Counted from the first letter of the stretch, positions 1-13,075 are shown. The stretch: 54,562 bases of DNA from a virus (IMGVR_UViG_2568526722_000002:1-54562), one strand, 5' to 3'. The notes: generated by a model not told the origin, from the sequence alone. Made by a program: numbers and translations.

Positions 1-771
1 TCAATAAGTACCCTTCTTATTAGGATTCACACTAAATTTCCGTAAAGCATTCCCCGACTTAAGCACTTTTGAAGCCTGCTCATTAGCTGAGGCTGTGAAG
101 GTGCTCTCACCATTTTTAACGCTAACGCTCTTAGAGCACGTTACACGGGCTTTTAGCGCTTCATCTGATAACTCACTTGCCGAATAGCTAAAAAGCTCTT
201 TACAGGTCAGCATAGGGCTTCCAAGATTCGTTGTAGTGTTCCCTGTATTCTTTTTACTGGTAGCACCACCATCATTTGTGGTAGCCGTTTTGCCAGTGGC
301 TGCTGAAATATCAGTTTGCCCTACGATTGAACGAAACTCTACACCTTGGAAGGTCATCTGAATACGAAGACCATTAGCAATGGTATGCTCTTTACTCGCT
401 TTAAACTGAGTAATGATACTATCAGTGATAGATATTCCATCTTTACAAACAATAGTGATGATTTGCTTCTGGTCTCGCCATTGTTCAACCGTAGAAATAA
501 AGGTTTCTACAAGTTGCCCCTGTCTGGTTAATAGAACTGAACCCGTCGAATCAACCACTACAACACCGCTAATAGAGATGGTCTTAGGTGCTCTCTGAAC
601 ATTATCAGTGATAGTTTGCCCCGATTGCATAGCCTGAGTTGTCACCATCATCGGTGAGTCATAGTCCATCTGTTCAGTAGCTGTTAAGGCAAGAAAAGAT
701 TCTACATTATCTCGAAGATGAAAATAGATACCATCTTTACCTGAGTATCTAATTTGCTTTGTGTCAAACAT
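1..771 (-). CDS. phage tail protein of unknown role, directly downstream of the tape measure gene
   Basis: 256-aa ORF, complete (stop TGA is the reverse complement of positions 1-3); sits immediately 3' of the tape measure gene in a minus-strand operon; no motif recognised. Confidence 0.4.
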
Positions 772-944
772 TGTTGTTATTCCTATTCTGTTAAGCGTGA
801 GCTACGTGAAATCTAATTTTTGATGTTGGTATCTGTTCAGAAGAAATCACGTAGCATTCGACTATTCATAGTTGAATCGTCATACTAGATAAAGATTAAT
901 AGATTGCCATGTGTGGCAATAAATATTAGTAGTTCTAACATTGT

Positions 945-3011
945 TTATTCCTCTGGGTAAGCTGAGCTAATCAAGGTATCTTCCTGCATACGATTAATAT
1001 GTGATGTTGTCCTTTCATCAATAACTTTCCCATCAAGTACCGTCTGAGTTGTGATATTGATTGTCTGAGGCTGAATATTTACTGACGGCTTGATAAGCTT
1101 TAAATCTTGTGTGAATGTTTCCACTCGACCTTTCAGATTATTTAATGCTTCAGGTGAAAACTGTGGAACATCTTTTGATTTGCCCTGAACCATAGCCCAT
1201 AAAACAGTGGCTAAAGAGTTCATGTCACCAGTTAATGCTTGGTCTGTGGGTTCCACCTTTGACCTTACAACTTTATCAATTGGATTATCTGACTTACTCA
1301 TCTGACGTTCATAGAACGGTTTGACAATGGCATTAATCACATCAGTTGCCATACCGATAATCACTACTTTGGTAATTGCATCAGCTACAGATAATTTTCC
1401 TTTACCACCTTCAACACTACCGGAACGTGAATTAATTCTTCCTGCTGCTGTATTTGCTACATTTCCAAGCGTGGAAATAGCCCTAATTAAGTTCCAGATA
1501 CCACCTACAGCACCAATACCAGACCTTACAGCGACAATACCAGCAAGTCCCTTTAATGCACTTAACAGGCCATTTGCGATACCATCAGCTACAGCTTTTT
1601 GAGTGTCATTTAATTCTCTGTAAGCAAGGGTCACTCTGTCAAAGAATCCCTGCACTCGGTAGCTAATCGTGGTTAAATCATCAATACCGTTTGACATGCT
1701 TTTCATCAAGTCGCCAAAATGTTCACCAAGATTTTTAGCTTGACCACCCAGTGAATTAAGTAAATTAGTCAGTGACCTTGTAAAGTCTGTTAAACCTTCC
1801 TGTGAACCATCGAACATTAAGGCCAGATTATTATTCCATGAATTACTTAAGCGGCCTAACTGCGTCTGAGTAGAGTTAATAATCTTTTCCCATCCACCAG
1901 CTTTATCAATCATCCTTCCCATTTCAGCGGATACTTTAGGGAGAACATCTTTAGAAAGAACCTTACCGTCTTTCATGGCCTTGTCTAATTCTTCTGTAGT
2001 CATCCCAAGGCTTCTGGCAAATAACTGGAAAGCACCTGCCATTCTGTCACCTAATTGACCACGTAGCTCTTCAGCCTGAATCTTCCCTTTAGAAGCCATC
2101 TGCTCGAAAGCTTTCAGAATCCCGTTAATTTCATCAGTACTTAAACCCATTAATCTGGATGTGCCAATCACATTAGAAAATAGGGATTCTTTCTGGTCTG
2201 TATTCATATCACCAGCACCAGCGGAAAACTTAGCAAAACTGCTTAATGTTTCAATCTGGTCTACACCTGTATTATTAGCAAGATTCTTAACGAAGTCTGT
2301 AGCTCGTTTAGCGCCTTCATCGCCTAATACAAATTGTGCCGCTCGTTGTGATGCTTCTTTTTTCAGACCAACCTCCATAATCTTCCTATAAGCTTCTAAG
2401 GCTGTCTGAAAACTATAAATGGCTGTACCTGCTTTGATTGCACTTGTAGCTAATACATCTAAACCATTTGAAGCATTTTCACTGTGATTGTTTTTGCTGG
2501 TGGTCTTATTAAACTTAGAAAGTGTTTCACGTAGATTTTGATTTAACTTTGCTAACTCACGATTAAAAGCTTCGTTCCCAAGTGTCTTGGATTTACCGCT
2601 TAAGCTGTAATACTGGCTTCTAAAATACTTCTCAAGTAGAGGATTAAAGTCACGAAGCTTGCTCATATTCACGCTATGCGCTGCTGTGATTGCTCTGTTT
2701 CCGCTAATTCGTGGCTGTCTTGGCTGTCTAAGTGGCTTTAAAGTATCCTCAATTTCAGTTTTAATCTTAAACGCTTTAGTGTTTTTAAGACGCTGCTCAA
2801 TCTTGGAAACAGTCTTATCGACATTTCTTTCCATGACCTTGAGAGAATCATTTAAAGGCGTAGGGTTAACTCTGAATGCCTTATTTAGTCGTTTCTCAAT
2901 TCTTGATGCGATTTGCATCGTTTGTTTCTCGGCTTTTTCCAAGCCTTTTAAAACTTTCTGAGAGTTAAAACTTAACTCAATCAGAAAATCATCAACTTTA
3001 AACTGTGCCAT
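945..3011 (-). CDS. phage tail tape measure protein (lambda gpH-type core)
   Basis: 688 aa, coiled-coil rich; carries the conserved tape-measure core GILKAFEQMASKGKIQAEELRGQLGDRMAGAFQ...TTEELDKAMKDGKVL. Confidence 0.8.
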   Translation of the reverse strand: MAQFKVDDFLIELSFNSQKVLKGLEKAEKQTMQIASRIEKRLNKAFRVNPTPLNDSLKVMERNVDKTVSKIEQRLKNTKAFKIKTEIEDTLKPLRQPRQPRISGNRAITAAHSVNMSKLRDFNPLLEKYFRSQYYSLSGKSKTLGNEAFNRELAKLNQNLRETLSKFNKTTSKNNHSENASNGLDVLATSAIKAGTAIYSFQTALEAYRKIMEVGLKKEASQRAAQFVLGDEGAKRATDFVKNLANNTGVDQIETLSSFAKFSAGAGDMNTDQKESLFSNVIGTSRLMGLSTDEINGILKAFEQMASKGKIQAEELRGQLGDRMAGAFQLFARSLGMTTEELDKAMKDGKVLSKDVLPKVSAEMGRMIDKAGGWEKIINSTQTQLGRLSNSWNNNLALMFDGSQEGLTDFTRSLTNLLNSLGGQAKNLGEHFGDLMKSMSNGIDDLTTISYRVQGFFDRVTLAYRELNDTQKAVADGIANGLLSALKGLAGIVAVRSGIGAVGGIWNLIRAISTLGNVANTAAGRINSRSGSVEGGKGKLSVADAITKVVIIGMATDVINAIVKPFYERQMSKSDNPIDKVVRSKVEPTDQALTGDMNSLATVLWAMVQGKSKDVPQFSPEALNNLKGRVETFTQDLKLIKPSVNIQPQTINITTQTVLDGKVIDERTTSHINRMQEDTLISSAYPEE

Positions 3012-3136
3012 TGTTCATATTTCACCTCATAGACTTCGGATAGAAGACTATCTCATATACAAAAAAGGGAGAAACTACCGATATCACTCGATAATCTCTC
3101 CCGTTGATTTTTACCCAACCAATTCTATTAGAAGCT

Positions 3137-3346
3137 TTAATGGTAAACGTAAGAATACATCCCATCATCACCTAAAATCTGTGCGTCACATGGTAATTTA
3201 TCCAAGCACCATGAAGGAATCTTACGTACCTTTGGTTTGTGTGAGGTGATAACTCGACGTTGATTTCCAGTTCGTAGCTTTGGTTTGGTTTGTAACTTTA
3301 AGTTTTCACAAACAGACCGAATAGTCTCTAAACGTTCTTCAAACAT
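3137..3346 (-). CDS. hypothetical small basic protein
   Basis: 69-aa ORF between the 234-aa ORF and the tape measure gene, same strand. Confidence 0.25.
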   Translation of the reverse strand: MFEERLETIRSVCENLKLQTKPKLRTGNQRRVITSHKPKVRKIPSWCLDKLPCDAQILGDDGMYSYVYH

Positions 3347-11940: not shown

Positions 11941-11957
11941 GATCTGCCTCCGATTGA

Positions 11958-11977
11958 TACTGTTTTTATATACAGCA
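11958..11977. promoter_or_regulatory. LexA (SOS) box
   Basis: TACTGTTTTTATATACAGCA fits CTGT-N8-ACAG, located ~20 bp upstream of the small ORF start. Confidence 0.65.
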
Positions 11978-12319
11978 GTTTCATCAAAGAGTCGGATCAA
12001 TACTTGATGATGACTTTGTTTTATCTTCCGGTAGCCTCTTAAATTGCTTTTCACACAAATAATTGATATCAATACATGTTTTATCCAAGACACTCCGCCA
12101 CCAAAATGAGTACAAAAAGTGACACTCTTGTTCGCAGAATACTACGTAAATCCGATGGCCTGGGCCTCAAGCTCAGCAAGCCTGGGATCGACTACGAGGT
12201 CCTACAGTCACATGGATGGACTGAAATTTCAGATGGCACTAACACGATAATGGTGGAGCTTACTGATGGTGGTAAGTTGCAATTCTTCTTATGCGTCAAA
12301 CATCTGAGAGCATAGACCT

Positions 12320-13075
12320 TTATTGCATCGCCAGTAAAAATTGAGAGACAGATATTTTTTCAGCAGAAGTTAAAGAGCCGTTCATTAGCAATGTTGACTT
12401 AATATACTTGCTGGATGTTTCTACGTTGTTATCCACCTTTCTACCCATCAGTACGTTATTTGTGCCAGCAACCCTTGTCCCTGGCAGGGTTGATGTCGCT
12501 GACACCAGTGTGGAGGTCGCGGCGTTGAAAATATCGATTGCCACCACTCCCTGATTAACAGTGGCCACAAAAGCAAATAGACTTCCTGCAGCTATCGATG
12601 AAGGAAAATCAGCATAAGCATACACAGCAGACTGCCCGGTATTTTGAGCTACACAGAACAATCGCCCGGTGGTGTCAAAGCCTATAGAAAAGCCACTGGC
12701 CGTAGAGCCGCTTCCTGCATAATCCGCAATCATATGAGAGTTCAGTCCAGCTGCGGCATTCCTTTTTACCACTCCGCAAATGGTAACACTAAGTGTTGCT
12801 TTCTTCCTTGTATCCAGATAGTTACTAGGATTAACGGTAATAAACCCGCCAGTGTTATTCACTGTCCCGTTAATCACCGCCGGGTTATTTTGATCGTATG
12901 AGTCGTAAGTAATATCTGTTACCGGGTCCCCGAAATAGAACCCGGCATACGGTGTTGCCCCTGTGGTTGGCAGACCAATAAACCAGTTCGAAACATCAAA
13001 ATCAGAAAGAGTTTTCATCCCTGTTATCACAGGAAGAACTGCATCAATATAAATGGCGGAAATAGGCATTATCAA
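12320..13075 (-). CDS. tail-fibre-associated protein of unknown function
   Basis: 251-aa ORF immediately downstream of, and overlapping, the tailspike gene. Confidence 0.4.
   Translation of the reverse strand: MIMPISAIYIDAVLPVITGMKTLSDFDVSNWFIGLPTTGATPYAGFYFGDPVTDITYDSYDQNNPAVINGTVNNTGGFITVNPSNYLDTRKKATLSVTICGVVKRNAAAGLNSHMIADYAGSGSTASGFSIGFDTTGRLFCVAQNTGQSAVYAYADFPSSIAAGSLFAFVATVNQGVVAIDIFNAATSTLVSATSTLPGTRVAGTNNVLMGRKVDNNVETSSKYIKSTLLMNGSLTSAEKISVSQFLLAMQ

Follow-up and report, generated by a model that had tools for sequence, protein, structure and literature searches.

A widespread AT-rich integrative element beside a mosaic lambdoid prophage at yciI in Escherichia coli: a candidate satellite of Felix O1-like phages

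The viral sequence IMGVR_UViG_2568526722_000002 (54,562 nucleotides; hereafter the window, meaning the whole stretch of DNA that was analysed) carries two mobile elements that are unrelated to each other and flank the Escherichia coli core gene yciI. An AT-rich integrative element (element A) occupies the left part of the window, and a GC-richer prophage (prophage B) fills the remainder (Table 1). The original prediction, made from the sequence alone, had described an AT-rich phage-like element, visibly lower in GC over the first ~9.6 kb, that abuts a lambdoid prophage beyond 12.3 kb, as two independent elements in tandem at an integration hotspot. The window contains the right-hand 9.5 kb of element A, which is about 11.2 kb long; its left end is located off-window. 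The window copy is 98% identical to positions 15001-24544 of locus L001 from strain TB182A, where element A spans tonB to yciI. In TB182A a large serine recombinase of 506 amino acids (aa) with Resolvase, Recombinase and Zn_ribbon_recom domains is encoded next to tonB. Its gene is convergent with the other genes of the element and lies just beyond the left edge of the window.

Table 1. Positions of the features of element A, the intervening core DNA and prophage B in the window
Feature	Position	Strand	Basis or remark
Element A	1-9494		right-hand 9.5 kb of ~11.2 kb; left end and large serine recombinase off-window
Dit-like/baseplate-hub protein, 256 aa	1-771	-	Pfam Dit_like 3e-17
Tape measure protein, 688 aa	945-3011	-	Pfam TMP_3 1e-21; PHROG 4036 3e-92
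p69	3137-3346	-	family-specific, upstream of tape measure gene
p234	3369-4073	-	family-specific, upstream of tape measure gene
p107	4652-4975	-	
HNH_3 protein, 95 aa	5133-5420	-	Pfam HNH_3 2e-8
p71	5417-5632	-	
p92	5632-5910	-	
p183	5915-6466	-	
Six palindromes CTGnnAAGnnnCTTnnCAG	starts 7133, 7227, 7692, 7809, 8167, 9306		non-coding region 7133-9324, both sides of small recombinase gene
Non-coding block common to A and Felix O1-like phage genomes	8167-8354		blastn
Small serine recombinase, 182 aa, resolvase/invertase type	8382-8930	-	Pfam Resolvase 4e-41 and HTH_7; PHROG 125 DNA invertase
attR of A, 13-bp crossover core TCAAGGGTCATTG	9495-9507		empty site (23CRST046) against occupied sites (TB182A, COL60J, window)
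Core chromosome between A and B: displaced tonB promoter/Fur-box region and yciI (9729-10025)	9508-10023	+	
attL core of B, last ~20 nt of yciI	10004-10023		empty site of TB182A against window and 23CRST046 (L010)
Remnant switch of B	10144-10889		
Pin-type invertase gene, intact	10144-10692	-	Pfam Resolvase 8e-38 and HTH_7
Crossover-like site	~10753-10778		
Tail-fibre stub, 111 bp	10779-10889		
Captured host DNA, 323 bp	10890-11212	+	3' 231 nt of yecD and 5' 96 nt of yecE; ends at old yecE-type attL
Body of prophage B	11213-54562	-	attR off-window; PHROGs, Pfam, RefSeq annotation of near-identical prophages
Tape measure protein of B	22456-24309	-	PHROG 2276, 5e-142
Tyrosine integrase of B	53369-54562		Phage_integrase (Pfam)

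With the empty site of strain 23CRST046 as reference, where tonB directly adjoins yciI, the right end of element A was placed at 9494. The 13-bp crossover core found there is repeated at the left junction of the element, where it covers the start codon (ATG) of tonB and the eight nucleotides after it. The reconstructed attP shows dyad symmetry (CCGAATAG...CTATTCGG), and its junction sequence includes ...GACTTCATTCAAGGGTCATTGTATTGTAGC.... A second insertion site is used by the family, as D10 and O157:H7 Rafaela_II carry A-family elements within yecE. The large recombinases of the tonB-type and the yecE-type are 33-34% identical, each paired with its own site, and the reconstructed attP sites of both types are dyad-symmetric, as expected for serine integrases. 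Members of the family have therefore moved between sites. Two islands of the Sakai genome were also considered as copies of element A and were rejected, SpLE2 being a CP4-44-like island and Sp13 being P2-like, with an intact yecE in Sakai.

Between the two elements lie 529 bp of core DNA, composed of the tonB promoter region and yciI; the interval 9495-10023 is 99-100% identical in TB182A, 23CRST046 and COL60J. The attL core of prophage B was obtained as the 20-nt overlap of the yciI-side and the kch-side matches, and in 23CRST046 its tyrosine integrase faces and abuts kch. Because this core is the end of yciI, as the comparison with the empty site of TB182A revealed, prophage B starts at 10024 and not at 12320. 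The predicted boundary at 12.3 kb was thus misplaced: the segment 10024-12319 already belongs to prophage B and contains the remnant of a pin invertase switch, a tail-fibre stub, captured fragments of yecD and yecE (yecD'-yecE') and a UmuD-like gene. Likewise, the elements neither abut nor share a single hotspot site, as they use different attachment sites with the core DNA in between: element A a serine-recombinase site on the start codon of tonB, and prophage B a tyrosine-integrase site in yciI. In TB182A a further lambdoid prophage is present at ompW (L001 1-9907), about 3.5 kb from tonB; some strains therefore have three distinct attachment sites over roughly 5 kb of core DNA in the ompW-tonB-yciI-kch region.

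Insertion of element A displaces the native tonB promoter. This promoter (TTGAAT-18-TAAAAT) was located in the empty site, and together with its Fur box it stays on the yciI side, about 11 kb from tonB. In the element end that now lies upstream of tonB (junction L001 13297-13460; window 9495-9580) one weak sigma-70-like match was obtained. A Fur-box-like match in this end scored 13/19, compared with 12/19 for the native box, and 134 of 2000 shuffled sequences also reached 13/19, so that a Fur box in this position is only suggestive.

Element A and prophage B occur independently of each other. In TB182A element A is present without prophage B and yciI runs directly into kch, while 23CRST046 carries prophage B without element A. 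In COL60J, element A is found beside a different prophage at the same yciI site. These relatives with a single element bear out the part of the original prediction that two independent mobile elements are involved. In a separate observation, Logan contig L029 (ERR6099571; 7348-10667) carries an A-family element and a tyrosine-integrase prophage at different positions within yecE, so that a single hotspot gene is truly occupied in tandem there.

The distribution of element A was examined by megablast against complete E. coli genomes. While positions 1-12320 matched all 5426 genomes, positions 1-9400 alone matched 570 of them (about 10%), in all cases on the chromosome. Most of these 570 matches are 80-92% identical with partial coverage, because the copies of the element are divergent, and some copies are interrupted by insertion sequence (IS) elements. 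Relatives were also detected in E. albertii, Shigella, Citrobacter and Salmonella.

The compositional step on which the original prediction was built is real, as it was recovered from both GC content and tetranucleotide usage. The GC content of element A in the window (1-9494/9500) is 0.391, compared to 0.533 for the core of prophage B (16345-44778), 0.512 for the whole prophage and 0.51 for E. coli core loci. In 500-bp windows the distributions for element A (mean 0.392, standard deviation 0.021, n=18) and for the core of prophage B (mean 0.533, standard deviation 0.034, n=56) barely overlap (Mann-Whitney, p=2e-10). Recursive segmentation placed a changepoint at 9707, which is 22 bp upstream of the yciI start codon. 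The largest compositional step of the window was found at 16344, and not at 9.6 or 12.3 kb, because the tail-fibre/acyltransferase arm of prophage B (12320-16344) is itself AT-rich, with a GC content of 0.42 for 12320-16303 and of 0.35 in the acyltransferase region (15103-16344). Tetranucleotide z-scores of element A correlate weakly with those of E. coli core DNA (0.29) and of the prophage B core (0.27), whereas the prophage B core is host-like (0.78 with E. coli). The closest signature to element A among those compared was that of EP1 (0.62), a phage of the Ounavirinae, and the GC content of 0.39 likewise lies near the 0.41 of the Ounavirinae phage.

Ten open reading frames (ORFs) of element A are located in the window, all on the minus strand: those for the small serine recombinase, p183, p92, p71, the HNH_3 protein, p107, p234, p69, the tape measure protein (TMP) and the Dit-like protein. 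A long non-coding stretch separates the small serine recombinase gene from p183, and 6467-8381 (about 1.9 kb) is without a long ORF. The TMP, HNH endonuclease and recombinase genes that had been predicted for this element were all confirmed, and the second TMP, in prophage B, is indeed unrelated to that of element A (BLASTP, E=0.25). Recognisable domains were found in the TMP, the Dit-like protein, the HNH_3 protein and the resolvase; the other six proteins have none, with p107, p71, p92 and p183 lacking any Pfam match and p69 and p234 lacking a match in Pfam, PHROG and phage searches. Comparison of p234, p183 and the HNH protein with phage genomes yielded nothing informative. The p234 protein occurs in 40 clusters only, from Escherichia, Shigella and Citrobacter, and its AlphaFold2 (AF2) model consists of long helices. 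By contrast p183 is represented by 1067 clusters from Escherichia, Shigella, Citrobacter and Salmonella, and is 'hypothetical' wherever it is named. Capsid, terminase, sheath, tube and lysis genes were not found in Pfam and PHROG searches, nor are they annotated by RefSeq in relatives that have the complete element. Because all of these are missing, element A is unable to make virions alone. Rfam and tRNA scans detected nothing in the element, and PADLOC gave no credible match to its proteins, the single hit being PDC-S26 at E=0.008.

IMG/VR loci that encode proteins 25-100% identical to the window proteins keep the gene order of element A, including the synteny of p107 to p183 in L013-L022. 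Even copies that have diverged to 25-60% aa identity retain all ten genes intact, and no stop codon was present in any orthologue across six loci. The ratio of nonsynonymous to synonymous substitutions (dN/dS) was 0.07-0.4 in most computable comparisons: 0.07-0.19 for the Dit-like gene, 0.13-0.32 for the TMP gene, 0.25-0.37 for p69 and p234 between more similar alleles, and at most about 0.4 in nearly all computable comparisons for the p107-p183 genes, with one p107 pair at 0.62. These values indicate that the genes of element A are under purifying selection and that the element is not decaying.

The tail proteins of element A point to the Felix O1-like phages. Across 98% of its length, the Dit-like protein shares 68-70% aa identity with an Ounavirinae protein (Felixounavirus, Suspvirus), and 253 of the 299 phage records that match it fall in the band of 60-80% identity. 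The Ounavirinae matched are myoviruses of about 85-90 kb that infect Escherichia, Salmonella, Shigella, Citrobacter and Erwinia, and the known members of this subfamily are virulent. The best phage matches of the TMP are also Ounavirinae TMPs, with about 29% identity over the full length (688 aa, compared to 747 aa in EP1), and in EP1 the gene for the Dit-like homologue directly follows the TMP gene, an order that element A shares. Similarity to EP1 extends to the nucleotide level, with 74% identity across 534 nt of the Dit-like gene and 80% across 183 nt of the TMP gene. A search of 50,697 phage records with the TMP revealed no relative at 60% identity or more, and therefore no parent phage is evident.

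Apart from the tail genes, a non-coding block is common to both. Searching element A from 3000 to 9494 by blastn gave matches in 137 phage records, all from Escherichia, Salmonella, Shigella and Citrobacter phages, and the top matches fell in 8167-8354. This block is 74% identical over about 180 nt, with a near-identical core of about 47 nt, to JLBYU28 (499-674) and JH2 (84738-84918), and its phage counterpart is a large, mostly non-coding intergenic region of Felixounavirus genomes. The whole A family retains parts of the block, and the subtype represented by the window and TB182A has an extra phage-like insertion, which suggests a recent exchange. In total, only about 3 kb of sequence are homologous between element A and the Felix O1-like phages. 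The adjacent TMP and Dit-like genes, the non-coding block, a GC content near 0.40 and a similar tetranucleotide signature are shared. Element A is related to these lytic myoviruses, and this kinship shows in its AT-richness. The phages differ in being virulent, about 85-90 kb in size and without an integrase, whereas element A is integrated in the chromosome. Rather than the generic phage-like element of the original prediction, element A is conserved, under selection, not autonomous and linked to the lytic Felix O1-like phages.

The same non-coding region harbors the six copies of the palindrome CTGnnAAGnnnCTTnnCAG. Allowing at most one mismatch, no further copy was found in the 54.5 kb window, at an estimated chance expectation of about 0.02 per 10 kb. 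The cluster recurs in the same region across the A family, with 2-3 copies only in L004, L006 and L014, and L014 keeps it though no small recombinase gene is present in the flanking sequence examined. Neither the phage segments of EP1 and JLBYU28 nor the controls from the host, from prophage B and from the satellites discussed below contained the motif; the JH2 phage segment had two matches. The repeats are candidates for an origin, for operators or for res-like sites. Inverted repeats at 8159-8188 and 9303-9332 had suggested that the DNA around the small recombinase gene can invert; this was rejected, as no inverted orientation was seen in four relatives, and the two repeats are members of the six-copy palindrome family.

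The best explanation for these features is, in our view, that element A is probably a satellite of Felix O1-like phages and a candidate for a system resembling PLE of Vibrio cholerae, a reading for which PLE and the E. coli satellites of Barth, Nguyen and Seed (2023) give the precedent. Element A would remain dormant until the cell is infected by a Felix O1-like phage, and its activation may occur via the shared non-coding cis-element. It would then be excised by its own large serine recombinase, would replicate, perhaps from the palindrome-rich non-coding region, and would be disseminated in virions of the helper, with tails assembled on the TMP and hub of the element, at the cost of the helper. 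Tail length scales with the TMP at about 1.5 Å per residue. Being about 59 residues shorter, the TMP of element A would be predicted to give a tail about 9 nm shorter. In this proposal induction, replication, packaging, interference with the helper and chimeric tails are all drawn by analogy. More tentatively, the family may represent an undescribed and widespread group of Ounavirinae satellites that would be triggered via a non-coding element derived from the helper and would form chimeric, shorter tails, an enterobacterial counterpart of the PLE-ICP1 pair.

PLE, an island integrated by a serine recombinase, is a parasite of the lytic myovirus ICP1, and it encodes a TMP, a tail assembly chaperone (TAC) and a baseplate hub that are 20%, 20% and 41% identical to those of ICP1 (PMC12987554). 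The chimeric tails that it assembles are shorter by about 10 nm, and its own transduction depends on the TMP (PMC12987554). Element A is likewise a small island with a large serine recombinase and a virulent myovirus as related phage. It has its own diverged TMP and hub, which are 29% and 70% identical to the Ounavirinae proteins where those of PLE are 20% and 41% identical to ICP1, and its TMP is shorter than that of the presumed helper as well, a likeness drawn from gene layout and the published description of PLE. The two differ in that element A resides in Escherichia, with Ounavirinae as presumed helpers, and is inserted at tonB or yecE instead of Vibrio repeats. Element A also has an additional small serine recombinase, and the RepA_N initiator, TAC, TcaP-like scaffold and Rta of PLE were not recognised in it. 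The TMP and hub of element A are homologous to adjacent Ounavirinae genes, and p69 and p234, which are without detectable homology, occupy the position of the TAC gene; a chaperone- or scaffold-like role for these two proteins is possible.

The second precedent consists of putative E. coli satellites of about 13 kb that end in TMP, hub and integrase genes, predicted by the laboratory that also described the PLE tails (PMC10448857). Most of them have a tyrosine integrase beside tRNA genes and encode a major capsid protein, a decoration protein and RepA_N (PMC10448857). For comparison we used L027, a satellite of this group located at tRNA-Thr in CFSAN029787. Both types are 10-14 kb long with a GC content of 0.40 and lack most tail genes, and both have the same end, composed of a small ORF, the TMP gene, a gene for a Dit_like baseplate protein (PF21821 in both) and a convergent integrase gene. 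In contrast, BLAST detected no similarity between them at the protein or DNA level, and the major capsid, decoration and RepA_N genes of those satellites have no counterpart in element A (Pfam, PHROGs). None of the six accessions with element A or a relative, five of them analysed here and one taken from the list of megablast matches, is listed in Table S6 of PMC10448857. Signature genes of P4-like satellites, PICI and cfPICI (alpA, pri-rep, sid/psu/delta, terS and the capsid module) were not found in element A with Pfam and PHROGs either, and a literature search on satellites of Felix O1 and the Ounavirinae returned no description of the A family. Element A appears to be an undescribed, widespread relative of tail-module satellites.

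Several observations weigh against the satellite proposal. A 23-mer across the attP junction was absent from IMG/VR and JGI metagenome contigs, and contigs of about 11 kb that carry p183, considered as possible excised circles, proved to be ordinary chromosomal fragments. A replication initiator, a tail assembly chaperone, a capsid-remodelling gene and a packaging gene were not recognised with Pfam and PHROGs; neither RepA_N nor any other replication domain was detected by Pfam, which leaves the region of the six palindromes as a candidate cis-region. The structural model of p234, one of the two proteins at the TAC position, is of low confidence (pLDDT 54), and element A shows no similarity to the satellite L027 in tblastn (E<=0.01) or blastn searches. 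In addition, the window itself ends before the large recombinase gene and the left junction, so that both were taken from the 98% identical copy of TB182A, and the steps of excision, replication and packaging are derived from sequence comparison and analogy.

The main rival is a defence island that sabotages tail assembly of Felix O1-like phages with a decoy or dominant-negative TMP and hub, and that moves by its own recombinase or by ordinary transduction rather than in helper virions. Homology of the tail genes and purifying selection would be equally expected for such an island, the missing replication and packaging functions and the failure to find an excised form fit it well, and interference with tail assembly is known as a defence strategy (PMC11364771). 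However, precise insertion, matched to the integrase, in at least two sites with swapped recombinase modules points to active mobility, as does the phage-like non-coding block; no PADLOC model matched credibly, and the tail genes of PLE serve the satellite's own transduction (PMC12987554). We therefore regard a purely defensive island as unlikely.

Even less probable is that element A is the decaying, cryptic remnant of a temperate phage related to Felix O1. The phage tail genes, the integrase and the AT-rich foreign composition would agree with such an origin, and so would the 1.9 kb without a long ORF and the IS interruptions in some copies, but the same set and order of genes over about 11-13 kb is found with different integrases at different sites, and these genes remain intact across deep divergence with dN/dS values mostly of 0.07-0.4. 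Moreover, no parent phage emerged from the TMP search, and the Ounavirinae known so far are virulent. That the whole window (1-54562) is a single composite element, or that the junction is an assembly artefact, was suggested by the closeness of the two elements and by the odd position of yecD'-yecE' next to yciI. Each element is however found without the other in complete genomes, the core gene yciI lies between them, and the odd junction is 99.7% identical in the independently assembled complete genome of 23CRST046, which refutes this explanation. A satellite of Felix O1-like phages remains the reading we prefer for element A.

Prophage B encodes, besides the UmuD-like protein, a tail fibre/SGNH esterase, an acyltransferase, a Mu-like baseplate, a TMP, a sheath, a lambda-like head, terminase, lysis proteins, Q, NinG, P, O, a repressor region, RecET and the tyrosine integrase. 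Its description as lambdoid holds for the regulation, replication and head genes: Q-like (1e-103) and NinG (2e-101) proteins were identified with PHROGs, Phage_rep_O, Phage_lambda_P, HTH_3, RecT and Phage_integrase domains with Pfam, and the head module comprises lambda-type terminase, portal, protease, decoration and capsid genes. It does not hold for the tail, which is contractile and Mu-like (sheath, PHROG 165, 2e-190; tube; TMP; Mu-type hub/DNA circularization protein; baseplate J; gp46) in place of a non-contractile tail of the lambda type. In this respect prophage B resembles lambdoid mosaics that have a Mu-like tail. The longest match to its tail-sheath/tube region came from Citrobacter phage phiNP, and coverage of the late region by any one sequenced phage in the collection did not exceed 12%.

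The left end of prophage B preserves the traces of a rearrangement. The sequence next to the Pin-type invertase gene (~10753-10778) resembles, by our reading, a Hin/Gin/Pin crossover site. The segment 10026-10778 matches the end of the prophage at yciI in COL60J with 97% identity, and invertible tail-fibre genes follow there; in the window 111 bp of the tail-fibre gene are left, and the switch is dead as its substrate has been lost. The early genes and integrase (40010-54562) are also 98.3% identical to the COL60J prophage, while 10890-35263 is 99.1% identical to a prophage in yecE of JNQH497, in which the same late region lies at yecE with this yecD'-yecE' flank. The captured yecD'-yecE' fragment is 95-98% identical to native loci (98.1% to that of 23CRST046 itself, 96.6% to that of JNQH497), and in 23CRST046, which has the same junction, the native yecD-yecE locus is intact. 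Prophage B is therefore a recombinant, in which the late genes of a resident prophage were replaced by those of a yecE prophage, a late half that brought 323 bp of host flank with it. The left join, inside the tail-fibre gene (10889/10890), was illegitimate, and the captured fragment appears to have come with the imported late region from another strain. A terminus-spanning inversion that joined the yciI and yecD loci was rejected, given that the integrase abuts kch and the native yecD-yecE is intact in 23CRST046.

Further features were noted in prophage B. An AT-rich islet (45370-46872, GC 0.33) beside the helix-turn-helix repressor gene contains an ORF of 434 aa (45438-46742, plus strand) without a match in Pfam or PADLOC, in a position typical of a moron or defence gene; none of the AT-rich ORFs of the prophage had a credible PADLOC match. 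An Acyl_transf_3 acyltransferase gene (15212-16303, plus strand, GC 0.35), a moron, lies on the opposite strand between the tail-fibre genes, and the adjacent 614-aa protein of the tail-fibre region (13072-14916) contains an SGNH/GDSL esterase domain, which suggest modification and recognition of surface polysaccharides. Just downstream of the Q antiterminator gene, positions 38420-38493 (minus strand) matched the Hfq-binding small RNA isrJ in Rfam with 68.7 bits (gathering score 37).

Mobile elements located near each other are routine, and the AT-rich element A is the more interesting part of this locus. At the tonB site it separates tonB from its native Fur-regulated promoter, which could alter iron uptake as well as the sensitivity to TonB-dependent phages and colicins. 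Because about one in ten complete E. coli genomes matches a relative of element A, the system would be easy to test. If element A is indeed a satellite or anti-phage island directed against Felix O1-like phages, it may help to explain why strains differ in resistance to these phages, which are used in typing and biocontrol of Salmonella and E. coli, and it would provide an enterobacterial counterpart of the chimeric-tail mechanism of PLE.

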